Positions 2,761 to 58,574 of a DNA stretch of 64,000 bases are shown here, piece by piece. The notes under the pieces were generated by a model that did not search any database, had not been told where the DNA came from, and saw nothing but the letters and a program-made list of their open reading frames with translations. Each line of letters begins with the position of its first letter. The first letter of the stretch is position 1. The stretch is taken from NCBI RefSeq assembly GCF_028368995.1, contig NZ_JAQNDL010000001.1, forward strand, positions 4,320,001 to 4,384,000, written 5' to 3'. The DNA comes from Nannocystis bainbridge (GTDB lineage: Bacteria; Myxococcota_A; Polyangia; Nannocystales; Nannocystaceae). A program made the position numbers and the translations under genes.

Positions 2761-3362
2761 CCGGCGACGACGCGCAAAACCCCCTGCAGCGCCTGGCGGC
2801 GCTGCTGACCCGCTTGCCAGGGATCGGCGAAAAGACCGCGATGCGCCTGGCGCTGTCGCTGGTCAAGGCCGATGGCGACTACGTGACGGCGCTGGCCGAC
2901 GCGATCGCGGGCGTGCATCGTCAGGTCGGGCTGTGCGAGGTCTGCTTCGACCTGTGCAGCGGCGGGATCTGCGAGCGCTGCCGCGACAGGCGCCGCGACA
3001 CCGGCATCATCTGCGTCGTGGCGCAGCCGCAGGACCGGATGGCCATCGAGCGCACCGGCGCGTATCACGGGCTTTACCACGTGCTCCACGGGGTACTCGA
3101 CCCGCTCGGCGGCATCGGCCCCGACGAGCTGCGGGTCAAGGAGCTGCTGCGGCGGCTGCAGGGCGACGGTGTCCGCGAGGTCATCGTCGCCACGAGCCCC
3201 AACGTCGAGGGTGACGCCACCGCGGTGTATCTGGCGAAGCTGCTGCGCCCGCTGGGGGTTCAGGTCTCGCGGATCGCCAGCGGGGTCGCCGTTGGTGGAG
3301 AGCTCGAGTACGCCGACATGAACACCTTGAATCGGGCGCTCGCGGATCGGCGCGCGCTGTAG
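2757..3362 (+). CDS. recR: Recombination mediator RecR
   Basis: LPGIGEKTAMRLA HhH, C4 zinc finger, Toprim ATSPNVEGDATA, GGELEYAD. Confidence 0.97.
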   Translation: MTGDDAQNPLQRLAALLTRLPGIGEKTAMRLALSLVKADGDYVTALADAIAGVHRQVGLCEVCFDLCSGGICERCRDRRRDTGIICVVAQPQDRMAIERTGAYHGLYHVLHGVLDPLGGIGPDELRVKELLRRLQGDGVREVIVATSPNVEGDATAVYLAKLLRPLGVQVSRIASGVAVGGELEYADMNTLNRALADRRAL

Positions 3363-4731: not shown

Positions 4732-4773
4732 TGTATTTCCGGACATGTTGCAACGGACAGGTCCCTTGCGACA
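4732..4773. repeat. Three phased 14-bp TGTC-N6-GACA-type units
   Basis: TGTATTTCCGGACA|TGTTGCAACGGACA|GGTCCCTTGCGACA. Confidence 0.75.
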
Positions 4774-5964: not shown

Positions 5965-6006
5965 TGCCTCAAGGGCCATGTCGCTTGCGACATGGCCCTT
6001 CGCACA
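5965..6006. repeat. Three phased 14-bp palindromic units
   Basis: TGCCTCAAGGGCCA|TGTCGCTTGCGACA|TGGCCCTTCGCACA. Confidence 0.75.
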
Positions 6007-10927: not shown

Positions 10928-13900
10928 GCAGCGACGACACCCGCAAGCCCAAGGACGACGACAAGAACCCGCTGCGCTCGATGGGCACCGCCCTCGGCGG
11001 GTGGGCCAAGCGCGTGGGCACGATCCTCAGCGAGGTCACCCAGCAAGGCCCGCCCGAGGAGGTCGCGCGAGCGATCGGCCAGGCGCGCGAGCTCAGCCTC
11101 GGCGGCGATTATGCCGGCGCCGCCGCCCGCCTGCGCGAGCCGCTGACGCAGCGCCCCGCGGACCCCTACCTCAAGCTCGCGCTGGCGATCACCCGCGTCT
11201 CCCAGGTCCTCACCGGCAACGCCCACCTGAGCGTCCTGCTCGAGCTCGCCGAGCCGGCCAACAAGCGCGGCGAGCGGGCCCTGCCCGAGACCCTCGCCGA
11301 GGCCACGCGGCTGCTCCTGCGCGACGAGTTCGACCCCGCGCTCGACCAGCTCCGCCGCGGCCGCAAGCTGATCGAAGACGCCTCCGAGCCCGCCGTGCTC
11401 GACGGTCGCTTCCTCCTCAACCTGCTCACCACGCTGCTTCAGGTCCGCCGCGGCCGCTTCGAGCGCGGCCTGCTCGAGTTTCAGCGGGCCCGCGCGCGCC
11501 TGCCCGAAGGGACACGTGGTCCCCTGCGCGCGCTGCTCGTCCGCGAGGGCGCGCAGCTGCTCCTCGCCGAAGATCACCTCGACGAGGCGATCGCCTGGCT
11601 CACCGGCGAGGCCGACCTCGGCGGCGGTGTTGCCGAGGTCGAACAGGGCACCGCCGCCGCGCGGGCCTACCTCGCCGTCGCCCTCGCCGCCAAGGGCGAC
11701 CGCATCGGCGCCGAGGCCGTGCGCAGCAAGATCGCCGCCCGGTCCGAGTGGGAGGAGCACCTCGTCCGCATCCACCTGCTCCTCGGGACAGGTGCCGAGG
11801 CGCGCACCCTCGCCCTCCGCCACCTCCAGCAGGACCCGCAGAACCCGCGGCGGAAGCGGCTGTGGGCCCTGTGCGAGGTCGCTGCCTGGCCGGTCGGCGG
11901 CTCGGACGCTACGCCCGCGATCCGCTCGACCGTGCTCGACGCCCTCGTCGACGCCGCCGCCTCGGCCGCCGGTGAGCGCCAGGAGCGGTACCTCCACGAG
12001 CTCGCCCACGTCGCCCTGCGCGCCGACCTCCTGTCCGATGGGACAGTCGCGCTGATCCGCAAGCGACTGCAGGACGGGGCCGTCTCGGCGCCCGAGGAGC
12101 TGCGGCTCGTGCACGCGCGTCGGCGCCTGCACGACAACGACGAGCGCGCGGCCGAGGATTTTCTGCCCGGCCCGCCGCCGCGCTTCCGCAGCCAGCCCGA
12201 CCTCGGCGGCCCCTTCGGCCCCGACGAGATCTCCCCGCTACGCGACGCCAGCCAGCGCCTCGGCGTCCTGCGGAGCCAGCGGGCCCTTGCGTCCGCCGAG
12301 TTCTGCCTCAAGAGCCATGTCCTCGAGGACAGCCAGCCCGTCAACCTGAACGAGGCCGCGCAGGAGTACCTCGTCGAGGTCCTCACCGAGGCCCCCGAGC
12401 ACGTCCGGGCGCGGGCCCTGCTCGCCCAGCTCGCCCAGCCGCTGCAGAGCAACCGCCTCGAAGATCTGCTCGCGGCGGCCACCGCCCTGCTCGCCGCGAT
12501 CCCCAGCCGCGTCCTCGGCGTCCCGATCACCGGCGTCGCCGACGCGCTCTCCGGCGTGATCGCGGCCCGCGAGCGCCTGGCCCGGCCGCTGACGATCGCC
12601 GTCATGGGCGAGTTCTCGTCCGGCAAGAGCACCTTCGTCAACGCGCTGCTCGGCGAGGTCGTCGCGCCGATGGGCGTGCTGCCTACCACCACCACGATCA
12701 ACTTCTTCCGCCGCGGCCCGACTGGCGGCGCGCGCGTGCACTACCGCGACGGCAGCATCAGCACGGTCGCGCGCGGCGAGGTGCACACCTTCCTGCGCGG
12801 CCTCGACGACGTGGCGGCGAGCCGGGTGCGGCACATGGAGATCGAGCGCACCTCGGCGCGGATGGGCGAGGCGGCGGTGGTCGACACGCCGGGCCTCAAC
12901 GCGCTCGACGGCTTTCACGAGCGGGTCGCCCGCGAGTTCGTCGACGAGGCCGACGCGATCATCTGGATCTTCTCGGCGACGCGCGGCGGCGCGGCATCGG
13001 AGGCGGGCGTGCTCAAGAGCATGCGCGCCGACGGCCGCCAGGTCCTCGGCGTCCTCAACAAGGTCGACACCCTCGACCCCGAGGAGCGCGCCGAGCTCAC
13101 CGACTATCTCAAGCAGCAGTTCGGCGACGTCCTGCTCGACATCATCCCGGTGTGCGCGAGTGATGCCCTCGAGCTGCGCACCGGCGCGGCCGATCCGTCG
13201 GCGCGCCACGACGATCCGTTCCGCGCCGTCGAGGACGCGCTCGAGAAGCATTTCCTCGCCCACGCCCGCGAGCTCAAGCGTTCGCTCGCCGCCCGTCGCC
13301 TCGGCGACGCCCTCGCCGGCACCGGCGCCGCCGTCCGCCACGCGATCGCCGGCCTCGAGGCCAAGGCCATCCAGAGCGGCCCCGTCGGCTCCGACCCCGT
13401 GCACCTCGAGGGTCGCCTCGTCGCGCTCGGCGACAAGGTCTACGGCCAGCTGCTCGCCCTCGACGATCTGCTCACCCGCGAGTGCCTCGCCCTCGGCGTC
13501 CTGCGGGCCGGCGCCGGCGGCAAGATCCTCGTCACCGACCAGGACGTCACCTACCTGACGGCTGTCCTTCGGGACAGCATCCTGCGCGCCCTTCAGGCCG
13601 ACCTCGGCGAGCTGTCCCAAGAGCCAGACTCCGACGCCTTCTCCGACATCCTCGCCGCGCGCCTGGTCCCGTGGGCCCAGGGTTACCTCGACAGCCTCGA
13701 GTCGTCGGGCTTCATCGCTTCGCTGATCCACGAGCACGGCCACGGCGTCGCCAAGGGCGAGGCGGCCCTGCGCGAGCGCTACCGCAGCGCCCTCGCCCCG
13801 GTCGCCGCCAGCTGGCGCAAGTTCATCCGCGGGCAGGTCCGGGCGATCCGCCAGAGCATCGCGCAGATGCAGCACCGCACCACCTCCGCCCCCAGCGCCG

Positions 13901-14231: not shown

Positions 14232-14906
14232 ATGAGCCTTGAACACACTTGGCCCGCCTGGGGCCTCGATGAGGCCGGTCGCGGCCCGATCCTCGGCCCC
14301 ATGACCCTGGCGCTGGTGGCCCTCGACGTCGAAGCCGCCGCCGAGCTGCGCGCTCTCGGAGTTCAGGACAGCAAGCGCTTCGGCACCGGGGCCAAGGCCC
14401 AGGAGCTACGCGCCAACCTGACCGTCGAGATCCGCCGCCTCGCCCGCGTCTGCGTCTGCGTCGAGATCCACGTCGACATCATCGACGAGCACACCTTCCG
14501 CGGGCAGCTCAACGTGCTCGAGCAGCGCACCGCCCTGCAGCTGCTCATCGACGCTGGCACCCCCGAAGACGCCCACATCATCGCCGACGGCTGCCGGATC
14601 TTCACTCCGCTGCAGCGCAGCTTCCCGCGCCTGTGCGCCGTCGACAAGGGCGAGTCGGCCCACATCGCCGTCGCCGCCGCCTCCATCATCGCCAAGCACG
14701 CGCGCGACGAGGCCTTCGCCGCCATCGCCGCCCGCTACGCCGCCGATTTCGGCCCGATCGCCGGCGGCGGCTACCTCAACGCCGCCACTCGCCGCTTCCT
14801 CGACGCCTACAACAAGGTCCACGCCCGCCTCCCGCCCGAGGCCCGCAAGAGCTGGGGCGCCGAGAAGGTCGACACCAGCGCCCAGCTCTCGCTGATGGCC
14901 GAGTGA
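14232..14906 (+). CDS. rnhB: Ribonuclease HII
   Basis: GLDEAGRGPILGP, GVQDSK, IIADG, VAAASIIAK..RD. Confidence 0.92.
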   Translation: MSLEHTWPAWGLDEAGRGPILGPMTLALVALDVEAAAELRALGVQDSKRFGTGAKAQELRANLTVEIRRLARVCVCVEIHVDIIDEHTFRGQLNVLEQRTALQLLIDAGTPEDAHIIADGCRIFTPLQRSFPRLCAVDKGESAHIAVAAASIIAKHARDEAFAAIAARYAADFGPIAGGGYLNAATRRFLDAYNKVHARLPPEARKSWGAEKVDTSAQLSLMAE

Positions 14907-14908
14907 CC

Positions 14909-15108
14909 TGTCCCCCGGGACAGCACCGCTCGCGGCCGGCCTGTCTCTCGAGACAGCTCATTTCACCGACGTGAGCGATGAATCGAGCTGTCCCATGAGA
15001 CAGGCACTCATGTCTCACGAGACATGCTCAAGAGCACATGTCCCAGACATCATGCTCTCTGCCACATGTCTCTCGCGACATGCCGCCGAGGACATGTCCC
15101 TTTCGCCA
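14909..15108. repeat. Cluster of ten TGTC-N6-GACA-type palindromes, seven in a phased 14-bp array (15011-15108)
   Basis: Single sites at 14909, 14942, 14989; then CATG junction every 14 bp from 15011 to 15108, between convergent rnhB and ECF sigma genes. Confidence 0.9.
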
Positions 15109-15112
15109 TCCT

Positions 15113-15730
15113 CTACTCGCCCTTGAAGTCGGCCAGATCTTGCCGGAGCTTCTCGAGCGCGTAGCGCATGCGACTCTTCACGGTATTCTCCGGCGCCCCG
15201 ACGACGTCGCCGATCTCCTTGAAAGAAAGCCCGTTGATCTGGCGCATCAGGAACACCTCGCGCTGGTCTTCCGGGAGCAGGTCGATCGCGCGAGCGATCC
15301 GCTGGCGGATCTGCGGCGCTGCTGCGCGCTCGTCGGTGGGCACCTCGTCGGCGGCCACCGTCTCGACCATCGCCGGCCCCTCGTCGTCGACCCCGCGGCG
15401 GGGCGTATCGAGCGACGTCGTGCGGCGGAACTTCGCGCGGCGGCTCTCGTCGACGCACAGGTTGCGGGCGATCGTGTAGAGCCAGGTCGTCAGCTTGGCC
15501 GTGCGCTCGTAGCGGTCCTTCGAGCGGACCACCCGGAGGAACACCTCCTGCAGCAGCTCTTCTGCGCGGCTGCGGTTCTGCACGCTGCGCAGCAGGAAGT
15601 TGAACAGCCCGCGGCGGTGGCGCGCGACCAGCTCTTCGAACGCCCGCGCGTCGCCGTCGCGGAAGCTCAGCATCAGCGCCTCGTCGCTGCGCGGCTCGGG
15701 CGGGCGGCCGTTGCGGTGCGGGTCGTCCAT
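15113..15730 (-). CDS. ECF-type RNA polymerase sigma factor
   Basis: SDEALM..GDARAFEELV, AEELLQEVF, TWLYTIARNLCVD, LSFKEIG..PENTVKSRMRYA. Confidence 0.93.
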   Translation of the reverse strand: MDDPHRNGRPPEPRSDEALMLSFRDGDARAFEELVARHRRGLFNFLLRSVQNRSRAEELLQEVFLRVVRSKDRYERTAKLTTWLYTIARNLCVDESRRAKFRRTTSLDTPRRGVDDEGPAMVETVAADEVPTDERAAAPQIRQRIARAIDLLPEDQREVFLMRQINGLSFKEIGDVVGAPENTVKSRMRYALEKLRQDLADFKGE

Positions 15731-17504: not shown

Positions 17505-17519
17505 GCTCGCACCTCGACC

Positions 17520-17614
17520 TGTCCCTCAGGACATCTGATTCCCGACCTCGCGCCGCGAATGACCTGTCCCTCGGGACATATCGCCTCGCGCGCGTCGACC
17601 TGTCCCTGCGGCCA
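17520..17614. repeat. Three ACC-TGTCCCTN2-G(A/C)CA palindromes between tsaD and rsmA
   Basis: 17520 TGTCCCTCAGGACA, 17565 TGTCCCTCGGGACA, 17601 TGTCCCTGCGGCCA. Confidence 0.85.
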
Positions 17615-17616
17615 CA

Positions 17617-21009: not shown

Positions 21010-21795
21010 CAACCCGGTCAACCGGGCGGCAAGCGGCCGCGCCGCGCGCTGGCGGCCAACATGTCCCAAAGGCCATGGACGTTAGTGCGCTTCTTCCCCG
21101 CGGCTCGTCGTGCAATCGCAGCCCCGGCAACCGAGCGGCGAGCGGCCGCGCCGCTGGCGACCAACATGTCTCAAAGGCCATGGACGTTAACGCGCCTCTT
21201 CCCCGTGGCTCGTCGTTCAATCGCAGCCCCATCAACCGTGCGGCGAGCGGCCGCGCCGCCGGCGGCTCACATGCCCCAAAGGCCATGGACGTTAACGCGC
21301 CTCCCCATGGTCGTGCGCTCGCAGCCCCGTCAACCGAGCGGCGAGCTGCCGGCCCAACATGTCCCGAAGGCCATGGACGCTTGCGCGCCTCCCCAAGGCT
21401 CGTCGACCGCTCGCAGCCCGTCAACCGAGCGGCGAGCAGCCACGTTGCCGGCGGCCAACATGTCTCAAAGGCCTTGGACGTTAACGCGCCTTCCATGGCT
21501 CGTCGTGCCGCTCGGTTGACGTGGCTGCGAGCGCAAGCTGCCGCGCGCAGGCGGCCCAACATGTCCCAAAGGCCACGGACGTTAGCGCGCCTCCCCATGG
21601 CTCGTCGCCCGAGGGCGGCCCCGTGATTGAGCGACAAGCGGCCGCGTTCCCCCGCCAAGCCCAGCAGAAGCTCACCAATTCCAGTGGGGTCCCACTGCAC
21701 CGTCGTGGCCGTCGATCGAGCTCCGCTTCCCGGCGGACGCCGAGACATCGCCGCTACCATCCACATGTCCCAGCGACCATGGACATTAGCGCGCG
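21010..21795. repeat. Degenerate ~100-bp tandem repeat (6 clear units plus 1 distal core)
   Basis: Core ACATGTCYCAAAGGCCATGGACGTTARCGCGC with ATG at 21061, 21166, 21271, 21359, 21460, 21561 and a weaker copy at 21765. Confidence 0.9.
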
Positions 21796-27219: not shown

Positions 27220-27410
27220 TGTCCCTCGGGACATGTCTCTAAAGACATGCCGAGGCACATATCCACCTGGTCTTTGAGCCATGTTGCAGCGGGGTCACCG
27301 CCACAACTCGCTCGTCGCCCAGAATCATCTGTCTCTTGGGACAGCTCCGACGACGGCGGATCGAAACAGCCGAGCCCAGCGGCCTGCGCTGACGACTGTC
27401 CCCAAGGACA
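27220..27410. repeat. TGTC-N6-GACA cluster between convergent bioF and mnmE
   Basis: Perfect sites at 27220 and 27234 (tandem), 27330, 27397; variant at 27268. Confidence 0.85.
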
Positions 27411-39707: not shown

Positions 39708-39825
39708 CGCCCTCTCGGGCATGTCCGAAAGGACATGCCCGAAAGAGCGAAAGACAAAGGACATGCCCGAAAGGACATGTCCTTTCGTCGTCATGGACGC
39801 CGACGATCGGCTGTCCCGAAGGCCA
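39708..39825. repeat. Phased 14-bp palindrome array after gyrB
   Basis: TGTCCGAAAGGACA|TGCCCGAAAGAGCG|AAAGACAAAGGACA|TGCCCGAAAGGACA|TGTCCTTTCG.., plus TGTCCCGAAGGCCA at 39812. Confidence 0.85.
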
Positions 39826-44372: not shown

Positions 44373-46516
44373 TGACGCGGCGGCGTCTCCCGATCTTGCA
44401 ACCCCGACTCGAGGGCGGCGACGAAGACCCGCTCGAGCTCCTCCGCGGCGGCCGCTTCGCCCGCTGGTTCGCGGCGTCGCTGGCGGTGATCGGCCTGGTC
44501 TGGATCGTCAGCGAACGCGTCGAGGCCCGCGACACCGCCGACTCCGTGGTCCTCGTCCACACTGCCCTGCAGGCCCCGCCGCAGCCGCCGATCGAGGACA
44601 TCACGCCGCCGCGACCTCCGGTCGAAGACATCACGCCGGCTCGCACGCCGCCGCAGCCGCCCGTCGAGGACATCACGCCGCCGCGACCTCCGGTCGAGGA
44701 CATCACGCCGGCTCGCACACCGCCGCCGCCACCGGTCGAGGACATCACGCCGCCGCGCAAGCCCGGCGAGACCGTCGACGAGTTCGGCCGCAAGCGCACC
44801 GGCACTGGTGCGCTCGTGCTCGAGGAGGGCGAGCCCGACGAGTCACTCGGCTTGCCGACGCAGCAGCGGCAGGCGATCGCCAGCGGCGGCTTCTTCGATC
44901 CGACGGCCTTCGACGACGTCAAGACCGTCAAGAAGAAGGCCTACGTCCACCTGATGCCGGGGATCCCCAACGAGGCGTTCTTCGCCGGCGTCGTCCTGAT
45001 CCTGCTGCTGTCGTTCAGCCTGTTCGAGCGCCACGGCAGCCGCGACAAGCGGGCGCGCAACTACTGGCACCTCGAGCTGACGAAGTTCCCCTGGCTACGG
45101 CGCGCGATCAAGAGCCGGTGGTTTCAGCCGGCCGTCCAGATCCCCGTCGTGCTCGCGTTCCTCGGCGTGATCGTCGTCGGCCTCGTCGGCTCGCAGGAGC
45201 CGGGCCGCAACCTCGCGCCGGTGCTCACCTGGAACATCTGGTGGATCGGCCTCATCTTCATGGTGCTGCTGTTCGGCAACCTGTGGTGCTTCATGTGCCC
45301 GTGGACCGCGATCCCCGACTGGATCATGCGCCGCAGCTTCACCAAGGTGCGCCCGATCGCCTCGCTGGCGAAGAAGTACCCGCGGCTCAAGCTGTGGATG
45401 TGGCCGGCGATCGTGCTGTTCGCGTTCATCACCTGGCTCGAGATCGTGTACGACGCGGCCAACCGCCCGTGGCTGACGTCGGTGCTGGGGATCTTCATGA
45501 TCCTCCTGAGCTGGGTGTTGCTGGTGGTGTACGAGCGCAAGGCGATGTGCCGCTACGTCTGCTACGTCGGCCGCGTCTCCGGTCAGTACGCGATGATGGG
45601 GATGCTCGAGCTACGTCGGCGCGACAACGAAGTCTGCCGCCACTGCGCCACCAAAGACTGTTACCGCGGCAGCCCGCGCGGCTACGCCTGCCCGACCCAC
45701 GAGTTCATGGGGGCCATGAACGAGAATCAGTACTGCACGCTGTGCACCGAGTGCGTCAAGAGCTGCCCGCACGACAACATCGCCCTCAACCTGCGGCCGA
45801 GCGGCGAGGACGTGCTGCACGCCCACCGCTCGCGCTCGGACGAGGCCTACATGGCGCTGCTGATCTTCATCGTCAGCGCCTTCCACGGCGCGGCCATGAT
45901 CCCGCTGTGGATGGAGTGGGAGAACGCGCTGCGGACCGCGATCATCGACGGCCAGACCGCGCTGCTCGGCGCCGACGTGCTCGGCTTCGCCGGCAGCCAC
46001 GGCGGCACGATGACCTTCACGCTGATGATGCTCGCCTGCATCCTCGGCCCCGCGGCCATCTACGTCGCGCTGTGCTGGTTGATGCGCCTCGCCAGCGGCC
46101 GCCGCGACATCACCACGCGCAAGCTGTTCGTCAAGTTCAGCTACACGCTGCTGCCGATCGCGCTCTTCTATCACCTGGCGCACAACGCCGTGCACGTGTT
46201 CTGGGAGTGGTCCAAGCTGCGGCGCCTCGTCAGCGATCCGCTCGGCTGGGGTCACGACCTGTTCGGCACCGCCCGCGCGCCGCTGACCGCGTTGTGGTCG
46301 CCGGAGACGATCTGGTACGTCCAGGTGGCGCTGATCGTCATCGGCCACATCTACGGCATCTACGTCGCCCAGCGCGAGTCGAACCGCCTCTACGCCGACG
46401 ACCGCAAGGCCGCCCTGCGCGTCCACCTGGTGATGATGGCCGGCATGATCCTCATGAGCCTGCTCAGCCTGTGGCTGCTGGCCCAGCCGATGTTCATGCG
46501 CACCGCCGACCTGTGA
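44372..46516 (+). CDS. Polytopic membrane 4Fe-4S (polyferredoxin, NapH/FtrD-like) protein
   Basis: WCFMCPW, CRYVCY, CRHC..DC..CP, CTLCTECVKSCP; many TM helices; TGATG overlap. Confidence 0.85.
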   Translation: MTRRRLPILQPRLEGGDEDPLELLRGGRFARWFAASLAVIGLVWIVSERVEARDTADSVVLVHTALQAPPQPPIEDITPPRPPVEDITPARTPPQPPVEDITPPRPPVEDITPARTPPPPPVEDITPPRKPGETVDEFGRKRTGTGALVLEEGEPDESLGLPTQQRQAIASGGFFDPTAFDDVKTVKKKAYVHLMPGIPNEAFFAGVVLILLLSFSLFERHGSRDKRARNYWHLELTKFPWLRRAIKSRWFQPAVQIPVVLAFLGVIVVGLVGSQEPGRNLAPVLTWNIWWIGLIFMVLLFGNLWCFMCPWTAIPDWIMRRSFTKVRPIASLAKKYPRLKLWMWPAIVLFAFITWLEIVYDAANRPWLTSVLGIFMILLSWVLLVVYERKAMCRYVCYVGRVSGQYAMMGMLELRRRDNEVCRHCATKDCYRGSPRGYACPTHEFMGAMNENQYCTLCTECVKSCPHDNIALNLRPSGEDVLHAHRSRSDEAYMALLIFIVSAFHGAAMIPLWMEWENALRTAIIDGQTALLGADVLGFAGSHGGTMTFTLMMLACILGPAAIYVALCWLMRLASGRRDITTRKLFVKFSYTLLPIALFYHLAHNAVHVFWEWSKLRRLVSDPLGWGHDLFGTARAPLTALWSPETIWYVQVALIVIGHIYGIYVAQRESNRLYADDRKAALRVHLVMMAGMILMSLLSLWLLAQPMFMRTADL
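44579..44760 (+). repeat. Coding repeat, five PP(I/V)EDITP units
   Basis: CCG(G/A)TCGA(G/A)GACATCACGCCG recurring, with a 72-bp higher-order duplication. Confidence 0.85.
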
Positions 46517-46644
46517 GGCGCGGCGATCGTCCGGGTGACATGTCCTTTCGGACATGCACGTCCACCGCGTGACGTACGCGACCCGCGCTGGAGCGCCACC
46601 GGCTCTCCTCGCGCGAGTCGCTCGCGGGTGATTCTCCCGCGCCC

Positions 46645-49707: not shown

Positions 49708-50043
49708 ATGCTCACCGACGATACCAACACGAACGCTGCGCCCGAGGAGGGCAAGAAGGCCTCCAAGCGCAAGACCGCCAAGAAGAAGGCGGGCAAGAAG
49801 GCCGCCAAGAAGGCGGGCGCGAAGAAGGCCGCCAAGGCCGGCGCCGCCAAGAAGACCGGCAAGAAGGCCGCCAAGAAGACCGGCGCCAAGAAGACCGCGA
49901 AGAAGGCGGGCAAGAAGGCCGCCAAGAAGACCGGTGCAAAGAAGGCCGCCAAGAAGACTGGCAAGAAGACCGCCAAGGCCGGTGCGAAGAAGACCGCGAA
50001 GAAGGCGGGCAAGAAGACCAGCAAGCGCGCTTCCGCCGCGTAA
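49708..50043 (+). CDS. Histone H1-like Lys/Ala-rich protein
   Basis: Repeated KKAAKK/KKTAKK/GAKK units; strong RBS. Confidence 0.85.
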
Positions 50044-51776: not shown

Positions 51777-51808
51777 GCGCCTGTCCTTGAGGACATGCTG
51801 GTAAGGAC

Positions 51809-52465
51809 ATGCGGAAGATCCGCCAGCACGTCAACCCGCTGAGCGCGCACTTCATGGTGACGCGCGCCCAGCCGGTCGCGCGCCCGCCAGAGCTCGCGCC
51901 CGGCTGCCCGATCGAGGTCGAGCTCGGCTGCGCCGACGCCGAGTTCAGCTTCGCCCGCGCGGCCGCTCGCCCGGACATGCTGATGGTCGGGCTCGACATC
52001 CGCGAGCCCTGCCTGGCCCGCAACCGCGTGCGCGCCGCCGAAGAGCGCCTGTCCAACCTGCTGTTCGGCTACGTCAACCTCAACGTCGACATCGACGTGG
52101 TGTTCGCGCCGGCCAGCGTCGACCGCTTCCACCTGCTGTTCCCCGACCCGTGGGTCAAGAAGAGTCACCACAAGCGGCGGGTGATCGAGCCGGCGCTGGT
52201 GGCGTCGCTGGCCGCGCAGCTGCGCCCCGGCGGCGAGCTGCACGTGGCCAGCGACGTGTTCGACGTGGCGCTCGAGATCATGGCGACGGTCGAGGACCCA
52301 TCGCTCGCGCACGTCGGCTTCGTCAACCAGGCCGGCCCGTGGGGCTTCTGGCGCGGCAACCCGTTCGAGGCCAGCCGCCGTGAACAGACGACGCTGCGCC
52401 GCGAACAGCGGGTGTGGCGGATGCGCTATGTCCGTGGCGACATGGCGGTTCCGACAGGTCCGTAA
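51809..52465 (+). CDS. trmB: tRNA (guanine-N7)-methyltransferase
   Basis: RQHVNP, VELGC, GLDIR, FPDPWVKKSHHKRR, ASD. Confidence 0.92.
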   Translation: MRKIRQHVNPLSAHFMVTRAQPVARPPELAPGCPIEVELGCADAEFSFARAAARPDMLMVGLDIREPCLARNRVRAAEERLSNLLFGYVNLNVDIDVVFAPASVDRFHLLFPDPWVKKSHHKRRVIEPALVASLAAQLRPGGELHVASDVFDVALEIMATVEDPSLAHVGFVNQAGPWGFWRGNPFEASRREQTTLRREQRVWRMRYVRGDMAVPTGP

Positions 52466-52577
52466 GGACATGGCGATCGGGGCATGTCTGTCTGGACATG
52501 TCGCATGTGACAGGTGAGTGGCAGGTCGGGCCGGAGCGACCTGGCCGTCTCGCTTTCAGGACATGTCGCCTGCGACA
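52429..52577. repeat. Six phased 14-bp palindromic units (52429-52512) plus a pair at 52550-52577
   Basis: TGTCCGTGGCGACA|TGGCGGTTCCGACA|GGTCCGTAAGGACA|TGGCGATCGGGGCA|TGTCTGTCTGGACA|TGTCGCATGTGACA. Confidence 0.9.
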
Positions 52578-52667
52578 GGTCAGCGGGGGGTCGATCCGGA
52601 GCGACCCTGGTCGCTCCGCCAGGCGCGAGCACCCGCCGCGGTCCGGCGGGGGGTTCACCCGAGGGCT

Positions 52668-53991: not shown

Positions 53992-54330
53992 GCCCCCGGC
54001 CCGCGCCTCGACGAGGACGCCGCAGCAACCCGCAGGGTGCGCGCCGTCCTCGTCGGCGTTTCTGCGTTCGAGAGACACCTTCTTCCGGACATGTTCGTGG
54101 AGGCATGTCGAGGAGATCGCGCCCGGGAGCCGTCCAGCGAATGTTCCTTCGCGCTGCACCGAGGATCGCCCTGCGCGTGACGGCTCCGAGTGCCGAGGCG
54201 TGACCGGATCTCGGCCGGGCGACCAGTGAGCGAGATTTGCCTCGCTCGAGCCGGCACCTGTCGGATGTTCCTTCGGACATGTCCGGAAGAACATCCGCAG
54301 CTCGGGTCGCAACAGCGGCCCCCGCTGCGC

Positions 54331-56972: not shown

Positions 56973-57325
56973 GGTGGCGAAGAGTAGCAGCGGCGCCAGC
57001 TGGCGCGAGTCCGCGCCCGCCGCACGAAGCTCACGCGGCCCGAAGACCTCGAAGACGGCGGAATGGCGGCTGCGAGGCCCGACGCGGCGGCTCCGAATTC
57101 GGCGCTGGTCTGGCCTGGGCGGAGGTCGGCGAGGCTGGGCACGCTGCTCGCTCGTCGAGGTGCCAGCAGGTGAGGAAGAAATCATGATCGCCGGCGCATC
57201 GAGCGGCCTTTCGAAGATGTCCGCGAGGACATGGTCGAAGAGACATGTATGCGCGCGGCCACTACCTCGCAAGGCGAGACGTCGCGGCCTTGTGCAGCGC
57301 CGGTGCGAGGTGCTAAGCCGAGGCG

Positions 57326-58504: not shown

Positions 58505-58574
58505 TGTCCGATCGGGCAGGGCCTTTGGCGCAGGTTCTATCGCGCATGTCGCAAGGGACATGGCCCTTGCGACA
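58505..58574. repeat. Five phased 14-bp palindromic units
   Basis: TGTCCGATCGGGCA|GGGCCTTTGGCGCA|GGTTCTATCGCGCA|TGTCGCAAGGGACA|TGGCCCTTGCGACA. Confidence 0.8.

Follow-up and report, generated by a model that had tools for sequence, protein, structure and literature searches.

A 14-bp palindromic unit, solitary or tiled in exact phase, concentrates at gene ends in Nannocystis and may be a site for a symmetric DNA-binding protein

In enterobacteria and pseudomonads, repetitive extragenic palindromes and bacterial interspersed mosaic elements (REP/BIME) are short palindromic repeats that occur in high copy number after genes and between convergent genes, often in clusters, and they have been proposed to act at transcript ends and as sites for gyrase or IHF. 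Another type of dispersed word is represented by the uptake sequences of Neisseria and Pasteurellaceae and by HIP1 of cyanobacteria, which are found about once per kb in genes and spacers, are made by substitution and are conserved across species; uptake sequences often stand as inverted pairs behind genes. Gap-free tiling is found in the met boxes, the operator arrays of the ribbon-helix-helix protein MetJ. How high-GC bacteria with few canonical terminators end transcription, notably at convergent genes, is poorly known. Here we analysed a 14-bp palindromic unit of Nannocystis bainbridge that had been noticed as a phased array at positions 15011-15108 of a 64,000-nt stretch of DNA (NZ_JAQNDL010000001.1, 4,320,001-4,384,000; hereafter the window, whose numbering is used for all its features). 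The unit was followed through the complete assembly (G000; 11.05 Mb, five contigs, 71-72% GC), in which the contig of the window is termed C1.

TRIT of Mycobacterium is described, in the part of the source drawn on here, as a genus-restricted, palindromic and sequence-conserved motif with 147 copies, tight to stop codons and mostly bidirectional, for which the authors infer an unknown factor (PMC3152330). For the ribbon-helix-helix ParB (omega) of pSM19035, the portion of the source used here reports that at least four contiguous 7-bp repeats are needed (PMC9499535). CdbA of Myxococcus xanthus is presented, in the corresponding part of its source, as a ribbon-helix-helix nucleoid protein with 569 peaks at GC-rich sites in genes and spacers and with little effect on transcription (PMC7156744). 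A literature search for palindromic or intergenic repeats of Nannocystis and for repetitive extragenic palindromes of myxobacteria found no description.

At 15011-15108 the sequence agrees with the initial annotation in that seven 14-bp units abut with exact starts and phase. CATG stands at 6/6 internal junctions and again at 15009, and the 3' end reads CATC. Calling them seven palindromes was only partly right: unit 1 is the sole perfect palindrome, and units 1-7 match TGTCY-N4-RGACA at 10, 7, 7, 6, 9, 8 and 8 of ten positions (own count), whereas all seven keep the exact phase and the TG..CA ends. The array occupies the final part of a 206-bp spacer (14907-15112) between the convergent genes for RNase HII and for an extracytoplasmic function (ECF)-type sigma factor, whose stop codon lies 4 nt past the array. 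It is one of 26 chains with at least six CATG-bounded units in the genome.

The period is a property of the whole genome. CATG-CATG pairs number 3736 at lag 14, against 72 at lag 13 and 262 at lag 15 (neighbouring lags roughly 70-300), and a further 2073, 1586 and 751 are found at lags 28, 42 and 56, so the autocorrelation check that had been proposed for this locus turned up a clear genome-wide excess. TGTCC-N4-GGACA is present in 1987 copies, with 12.8 expected, and is the most enriched of the abundant 5-N4-5 palindromes, a higher ratio being reached only by the one-base variant TGTCT. The most over-represented 8-mers are GGACATGT and ACATGTCC, each about 32-fold. We then scored all ten arm positions against TGTCY-N4-RGACA, using the reversed genome as control, and obtained 2982 perfect, 4933 nine-of-ten and 9196 eight-of-ten matches versus 6, 305 and 5601 in the control. 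Simple arithmetic from these counts estimates the total at about 11,200 units, equal to 1.4% of the DNA and about one per kb. The consensus is (A/C)TGTCY-Y-NN-R-RGACA(T/G), with a centre that is nearly free save for Y at position 6 and R at position 9.

These units form 6413 elements, 3666 of which are solitary. Arrays of two to seven units number 1335, 598, 204, 313, 204 and 67, respectively; 25 have eight or nine units, and one each has 12 and 13. Array sizes are thus non-monotonic, with a shoulder at five to six units and a sharp drop beyond eight, which may reflect either a preferred length of 70-85 bp or a detection bias.

The spacing within and between units is rigid. From TGTCC to GGACA, 1987 pairs fall at offset 9 and at most 19 at every other offset up to 22; from TGTCC to TGTCC, 682 fall at lag 14 against 22 at lags 13 and 15, and only 4 at lag 7. 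The enriched lags are 14, 28, 42 and 56 alone, and abutted units are not separated by gaps. The half-site itself occurs in 12,351 copies as TGTCC (about 10,250 expected by base composition) and in 11,418 as GGACA, the excess sitting in the 5-N4-5 pair. Junction decamers (RGACATGTCY) are nearly always parts of units, 195 of the 1353 lacking both outer arms.

To place the units relative to genes, we relied on our own crude codon-usage calls (8217 genes, 82-85% of each contig). Perfect units reach 1.62 per kb in convergent spacers, 0.67 in co-directional and 0.20 in divergent ones, compared with 0.085 in genes, so that convergent and co-directional spacers are 8-19-fold denser than genes. A unit of score at least 9 is held by 57% of convergent spacers (69-71% of those of 100-400 nt), by 27% of co-directional and by 19% of divergent spacers; for divergent spacers of 100-200 nt the figure is 6%. 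In co-directional spacers the unit is closer to the upstream stop codon in 73% of cases. A unit follows within 300 nt downstream of 2924 of 7683 genes, most often 2 nt after the stop codon, which is also the distance of the solitary unit at 14909 from the RNase HII stop codon. The TGA stop codon of 73 genes doubles as positions 1-3 of a TGACC-type unit. The stop-to-unit distances have secondary peaks 14 nt apart (-3, 11, 25; 2, 16), indicating that arrays are frequently phased with the stop codon. Within predicted genes lie 792 of the 1987 perfect TGTCC copies (about 40%), spread evenly along them and distributed over the reading frames as 448, 279 and 65, a bias that avoids cysteine.

The two arms of a unit vary independently. 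Mutual information over the five mirror pairs is 0.007-0.25 bits, and all four arm pairs stay at or below 0.02 bits. At positions 5 and 10, Y and R change without regard to each other: TGTCT..GGACA, TGTCC..AGACA and the doubly changed form are each 150-210-fold enriched, and the mismatched C..A combination is as enriched as T..G and T..A. At the other arm positions, uncompensated single changes mostly reach 7-22-fold enrichment and most compensated doubles just 0-9-fold. TGTCT..GGACA and TGTCC..AGACA are one duplex on opposite strands, and we therefore oriented 2259 units of co-directional spacers to the transcribed strand. Among these, the U.G wobble (149) and the C.A mismatch (157) at positions 5/10 are similarly frequent, and UUCG loops are no commoner than their complement. 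A slight lean towards wobble at 3/12 (114 vs 72) and 4/11 (52 vs 39) looks like strand composition rather than RNA pairing, since transversion variants are equally skewed (70 vs 107). In 956 solitary intergenic units, the flanks pair at 0.51 against 0.45 by chance in the first position and at 0.35 against 0.39 in the second, and the flank combinations (234 A..T, 169 A..G, 253 C..G, 196 C..T) are nearly free. Compensatory change of the kind known from REP stems was seen neither in the arms nor in the flanks. Independent arms and flanks together with rigid spacing fit a symmetric protein site on duplex DNA better than a structurally selected stem.

Constraint on the arms was examined in six species, namely G000 and five other large-genome species, in which the window is collinear (88-90% identity), with alignments interrupted where spacers carry units. 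Every in-gene unit of score at least 9 (16/16) aligns without indels in the five relatives. Variation in the arms of these units affects 10 of 150 sites, compared with 27.8 expected from the codon-position background (p = 2.7e-5), and 6 of 56 third codon positions within the arms, compared with a 33% background; the centres vary at 14 of 60 (9.9 expected). Between G005 and G007, considering all units of the syntenic 64 kb, arms differ by 0-6%, positions 5/10 by 7-9% and centres by 15-18%, with third codon positions at 7.1%. The arms are thus under purifying constraint in genes and in spacers. At the 15011 locus, an array of 7-8 units is present in 6/6 species and aligns in phase without internal gaps. 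Mean column identity of this spacer is 48%, and most of its invariant columns fall within the CATG/ACATG words of the junctions and the TGTC with which the unit at 14989 starts. Given the gap-free alignment, the centres that had been described as unrelated reflect drift in unconstrained positions of an old array and not separate insertions. The suggestion that selection keeps the period and the TG..CA ends is borne out by these alignments, in which selection or an equivalent drive appears to maintain both.

The unit is restricted to three genera. TGTCC-N4-GGACA has 114-2090 copies in 10/10 other genomes of the genus and 87 and 161 copies in one genome each of two sister genera, against at most 7 in 18 further relatives; the reversed-pattern control stays at or below 10 everywhere. 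The strict form CATGTCC-N4-GGACATG is present in 7/7, 5/5 and 7/7 genomes of the three genera and in 0/41 genomes of 14 other genera of the family. By our own arithmetic, the density is about 10-20 per Mb in the sister genera and 120-180 per Mb in the large genomes. Sites in the sister genera are mostly solitary, and several stand between convergent gene ends.

The reading that we favour, with a probability of about 45%, is that the units are tiled sites for a symmetric dimer that binds double-stranded DNA and acts as a barrier at gene ends. Each 14-bp unit would be a two-fold-symmetric site on duplex DNA, with inverted (A/C)TGTCY arms around a nearly free centre, and the putative reader would be a dimeric DNA-binding protein confined to Nannocystis and its two sister genera. 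On abutting units adjacent dimers would touch, so an array could load cooperatively as a continuous coat of one dimer per 14 bp, and this contact may be the reason why the exact 14-bp register alone is seen. The ParB of pSM19035, with its contiguous 7-bp repeats, is a precedent for tiling without gaps (PMC9499535). Placed after stop codons and above all between convergent genes, the coat would be a gene-end barrier whose most likely role is that of a roadblock or insulator that keeps transcription from reading through, possibly via recruitment of topoisomerase. The arrays themselves may have grown by local duplication, both direct and fold-back, after which the centres drifted and the arms were held. 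The side-by-side loading of dimers put forward in the initial annotation is accordingly plausible in outline: the symmetry, the independent arms and the 14-only spacing speak for it, whereas the lack of a found reader and the avoidance of the promoter side, unlike met boxes, speak against it.

A number of results weigh against this reading. All positions relative to genes rest on our crude gene calls. About 11,000 sites are far above any known operator system, and known tiled operators lie at promoters or centromeres, whereas these arrays shun promoter-side spacers. It is also awkward that in-gene sites would act as roadblocks too. No reader protein and no recurrent DNA-binding family emerged from a Pfam scan of 37 open reading frames around 14 strict sites of the sister genera or from the array-flanked genes. 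Five smaller-genome congeners have no array at the 15011 locus, where their spacer measures 19-238 bp and holds two solitary units in one of them, which marks the array as gained DNA. Among the six species, the coefficient of variation (CV) of spacer length has a median of 0.42 for spacers with units (n = 16) against 0.017 for those without (n = 18; p = 0.0002). A small number of palindromes that span several units persist in different species and carry changes on both arms. Finally, the 15011 spacer is predicted to form a very stable single-strand fold on both strands (z = -5.9 and -7.2), and in 814 arrays of at least four units the real order of units is 1.6 kcal/mol more stable than the shuffled order (p = 1e-37; better in 68%).

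An alternative is that a single-stranded nucleic acid is read, the arrays being a bidirectional U-tract-free terminator or 3'-end protector in which units are small hairpins, arrays pair via the junction decamers (RGACAUGUCY) and a factor reads the folded RNA, as proposed for TRIT. The 814 arrays fold at a mean of -32.3 kcal/mol, compared with -30.7 after shuffling the unit order, -30.4 with random units from the pool and -19.5 for composition shuffles. In the minimum-energy folds a unit pairs with other units and not with itself. The junction decamers are self-complementary, and any two can pair over 10 bp, successive helices being separated by 4x4 internal loops; such pairing would likewise need exact phase and leave the centres free. 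This account would further fit the bias to gene ends and convergent spacers, the lag-2 excess of reverse-complementary centres (4.0% vs 1.3%), the multi-unit palindromes at 5965 and 58505 that are retained across species, and the precedent of a genus-restricted, palindromic and sequence-conserved gene-end motif in the part of the TRIT source used here (PMC3152330). However, order-shuffled and pool-unit arrays fold nearly as well, so almost all of the stability comes from the shared arms in any order. Sense and antisense folds (-24.7 vs -23.3) are just 1.4 kcal/mol apart, the sense strand being better in 50% of 389 arrays, and the sense strand carries U.G and C.A forms equally often at 5/10. 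There is no compensation in arms or flanks, and the 3666 solitary elements among the 6413 have a sole possible stem of 4-5 bp. A prediction scan of the spacer 14907-15112 gave neither a terminator-like site nor a sigma-70 promoter, and the Rfam 15 scan of the 64-kb window gave 0 matches at gathering score. About 800 perfect copies, moreover, are conserved within genes. The predicted folding leaves room for an RNA or single-strand reading of the arrays and does not explain the solitary elements or the conserved in-gene copies; taken as a whole, we regard it as unlikely.

How the arrays grew can be read in part from their centres. Adjacent centres are identical in 2.7% of pairs (150/5458) and reverse-complementary in 1.7%, against 1.3% in shuffled units, and the view that this is no recent slippage minisatellite therefore stands. 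At lag 2, reverse complements rise to 4.0%, and at lag 3 direct identity to 3.7% (shuffled 1.3%). The reverse-complement excess is confined to lag 2, with none at lags 1, 3 and 4 as whole-array palindromes would give. The lag-2 signal corresponds to three-unit palindromes centred on a unit, for example at 5965-6006, which would be the expected product if a 3' end folded back on a unit and primed copying.

The initial annotation had offered, as another origin of the arrays, serial site-specific insertion of ready-made 14-bp TG..CA units into CATG. Each insertion at CA/TG would regenerate two targets, and the arrays are net gained DNA relative to the small-genome congeners. Yet the alignment of the two closest species, which is rough in spacers, has 347 gaps, among them one of 14 bp and none of 28 or 42 bp; orthologous arrays align unit for unit and gap-free in six species; solitary units are mostly flanked by C..G and not by CATG; and in-gene copies show no indel, without any change of length in 5/5 relatives. 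This origin is not supported, and we give it next to no weight.

The growth signals and the length-variable spacers also suit a selfish or neutral repeat family, REP-like but without transposase, that spreads by slippage and hairpin-primed fold-back copying in unconstrained gene-end DNA without serving the host. Composite modules of 50-105 bp, each with a unit, have been amplified in single species, and the duplication signals, direct and inverted, are small but real. The higher density in the large genomes (120-180 per Mb, against about 10-20 in the sister genera), the CV of 0.42 against 0.017 and the five small-genome congeners without an array at the 15011 locus point in the same direction. 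A family of this kind would not, however, lead one to expect in-gene arms conserved below the synonymous rate without change of length, or arrays that persist at the same gene ends in 6/6 species with invariant junctions, and sequence-specific uncompensated arms are unlike hairpin-mobilised repeats. A mobiliser was not seen either: Y1/RAYT transposases of the IS200/IS605 type (PF01797; RAYT, REP-associated tyrosine transposase) had no match in G000, two other genomes of the genus, three of sister genus g2 and three of g4, the control having matched 6 of 14 known genomes. Nor do arrays recurrently flank any one gene family: among the 71 genes with at least three units on both sides, the largest homologous cluster has four members. 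A purely selfish or neutral origin is accordingly quite improbable. A composite mobile element was considered and rejected, as 40 random arrays of at least six units had no common position-specific content.

All five contigs carry units (72 +/- 26 per 100 kb), fewer of them where GC is lower (r = 0.57), and no origin or terminus pattern is obvious across the contigs. Some 100-kb stretches hold just 13-21 units (mean 72), at about 0.5, 1.1-1.3 and 1.8 Mb of C1 and at about 0.4 Mb of C5; some of these unit-poor stretches coincide with weak GC skew, and the stretches may represent islands or giant gene clusters. A drive or recognition signal that acts on the whole genome, in the manner of uptake sequences, Chi or HIP1, and in which biased uptake, recombination or repair favours the word and gene ends tolerate it best, would account for a density of about one per kb on all contigs with fewer units in lower-GC stretches, for copies in both genes and spacers with cysteine-avoiding frames (448, 279, 65), and for conservation at synonymous sites. 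It leaves unexplained the exact 14-bp tiling and the 8-19-fold excess at gene ends over genes; the half-site alone is barely enriched (TGTCC 12,351 vs about 10,250 expected), and one-off variants are mostly 7-22-fold enriched rather than depleted. We hold such a drive to be very improbable.

Returning to the protein-coated gene end, a more specific version can be put forward tentatively, although we consider it rather doubtful in its full form. The units might be a clade-specific punctuation, in which a small symmetric protein tiles them, with two inverted 7-bp half-sites per dimer, as a filament at most convergent gene ends, so that a protein roadblock and not an RNA hairpin would end transcription or insulate supercoiling in a 71% GC genome with few canonical terminators. 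The conserved in-gene copies would then be weaker pause or organising sites. As for the reader itself, CdbA was considered and rejected, since its motif, in the part of the source used here, is a direct repeat and not a palindrome (PMC7156744).

The features of the 15011 locus and the other phased arrays of the window are collected in Table 1. Phased units were confirmed at all ten further places listed in the initial annotation; eight are in the table, and the other two are at 51782 and 57218. In this window of G000, 10 of 11 convergent spacers hold units. The nearest named relative of the ECF sigma-factor gene is in a Nannocystis sp. metagenome-assembled genome (80% identity), followed by metagenome-assembled genomes of Nannocystaceae.

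Table 1 Features of the 15011 locus and other units and phased arrays in the 64,000-nt window.
Feature	Position	Strand	Remarks
Seven-unit array	15011..15108		Unit starts 15011, 15025, 15039, 15053, 15067, 15081, 15095; from sequence; Tandem Repeats Finder (TRF) periods 14 and 28
Solitary perfect unit TGTCC-N4-GGACA	14909..14922		C..G flanks; starts 2 nt after RNase HII stop codon
Solitary perfect unit TGTCT-N4-AGACA	14942..14955		C..G flanks; out of phase with 15011 array
Solitary unit TGTCC-N4-AGACA	14989..15002		C..G flanks; 8 nt before 15011 array, out of phase
RNase HII gene, upstream convergent	14232..14906	+	Own gene call; Pfam PF01351, E = 2.5e-24
ECF-type sigma factor gene, downstream convergent	15113..15730	-	Own gene call; Pfam Sigma70_r2, Sigma70_r4, Sigma70_ECF
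Three-unit array	4732..4773		Co-directional spacer; retained in 6/6 species
Three-unit array	5965..6006		Convergent spacer; outer units are reverse complements around middle unit (30-bp palindrome)
Perfect in-gene unit	12032..12045		Dynamin-like GTPase gene; identical in 6/6 species
In-gene unit	12318..12331		Arms 10 of 10 in 6/6 species; centre and encoded residues differ
Two to three phased units	27220..27261		Convergent spacer; 12 nt after stop codon
Three phased units	39708..39749		Start 3 nt after stop codon; more units downstream up to 39831
Six-unit array	52429..52512		Starts within the end of a predicted gene, extends into convergent spacer
Four degenerate phased units	54064..54119		Includes 54078 of the initial annotation
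Two units, near reverse complements of one another	54266..54293		
Five-unit array	58505..58574		Convergent spacer; five to six units in 6/6 species

Larger repeats that carry units were also observed in the window. At 21013-21647 there is a 105-bp tandem repeat with one unit per copy (caaca TGTCCCAAAGGCCA tggacgtta) and about seven unit-bearing copies in G000; the spacer that holds it is 1281 bp long in G000 against 272-620 bp, with two to four units, in five relatives. Modules of 70-90 bp with one or two units have been amplified in single species, in G007 opposite 46517-46644, in G010 opposite 17505-17616 and in G001 opposite 52466-52667, and within them the arrangement unit, 12 bp, unit recurs. 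They point to a second, larger-scale route of unit multiplication. The 353-bp spacer at 56973-57325 corresponds to 2.5-2.7 kb in 5/5 relatives, G000 being without about 2.2 kb of gene-bearing DNA, and units flank this length difference. Two coding repeats are of another kind: an in-frame 72-bp tandem repeat at 44576-44763 (2.5 copies, 93% identity), with a 68-bp insertion at the orthologous place in G007, and a long lysine/alanine-rich repeat at 49771-50019 (AAGAAGGCCGCCAAG-type, periods 12-51) that resembles a histone-H1-like basic tail.

Two observations concern strict sites in sister genus g2. In G011 (L043) and G048 (L051) such a site lies within a YceG/MltG gene, at position 3003 in each and over the same residues (HHVRGDM), and the G000 orthologue (C1:3875770-3876858) has lost the left arm. 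In G011 a gene with a TfoX_N domain, of a competence-regulator family (L040:3976-4353), lies about 1 kb from one strict site, a single case that is probably coincidence.

Whatever reads it, the unit is a simple and countable DNA code that takes up about 1.4% of the genome, is present at most convergent gene ends, is under measurable constraint and is shared by three genera. It accounts for gene-end spacers being the hypervariable stretches of these genomes, and assemblies of related metagenome bins may break because of it. Should the reader be a tiling protein, the units would represent a new way of marking gene boundaries and would also supply a compact insulator part that can be programmed; should the RNA do the reading, the TRIT idea of sequence-specific, factor-assisted terminators would extend to a second phylum.

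Compared with the known systems, the units share with intrinsic terminators their position at the 3' ends of genes, and the canonical U-tract is absent in the 15011 spacer scan. With REP/BIME they have in common the high copy number, the palindromic form, the concentration at gene ends and in convergent spacers, and the clustering. They differ from them in a unit of 14 bp instead of 20-40 bp, in arms without compensatory variation and in that no Y1/RAYT was found; clusters here are gap-free in a 14-bp register, whereas REP clusters alternate with linkers, and about 40% of the perfect copies lie in genes, conserved and without indel in relatives, even though spacers are still 8-19-fold denser. 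TRIT, also a genus-restricted and sequence-conserved palindrome at stop codons in the part of its source used here, is the nearest published parallel to the structural alternative (PMC3152330). However, there are about 11,000 units here against 147, and the same part of the source describes TRIT as one stem-loop motif and mentions no tiled arrays (PMC3152330). Stem covariation, moreover, is not seen in the units here, many of which are conserved deep within genes. Unlike uptake sequences and HIP1, the enriched object is a fixed 5-N4-5 pair and not the half-site, and it is tiled in register with a strong gene-end bias. CdbA differs in recognising, in the part of the source used here, a direct repeat spaced 4 bp rather than an inverted one, with no gene-end bias or tiling reported there (PMC7156744).

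The operators of omega/ParB and MetJ likewise consist of short gap-free repeats, and the unit here, as two inverted 7-bp half-sites, corresponds to converging heptads as given in the part of the omega source used here (PMC9499535). Those operators are few arrays at promoters or plasmid centromeres, against thousands at gene ends here, and the half-sites here alternate strictly in orientation, with TGTCC to TGTCC at lag 7 counted 4 times. Ribbon-helix-helix operator arrays, REP/BIME and canonical terminators thus each differ from the units in at least one tested defining feature. Gap-free ribbon-helix-helix tiling may serve as the closest working analogy. In kind, the units are dispersed gene-end palindromic repeats, and there is a real chance that they represent a new kind of gene-boundary system.

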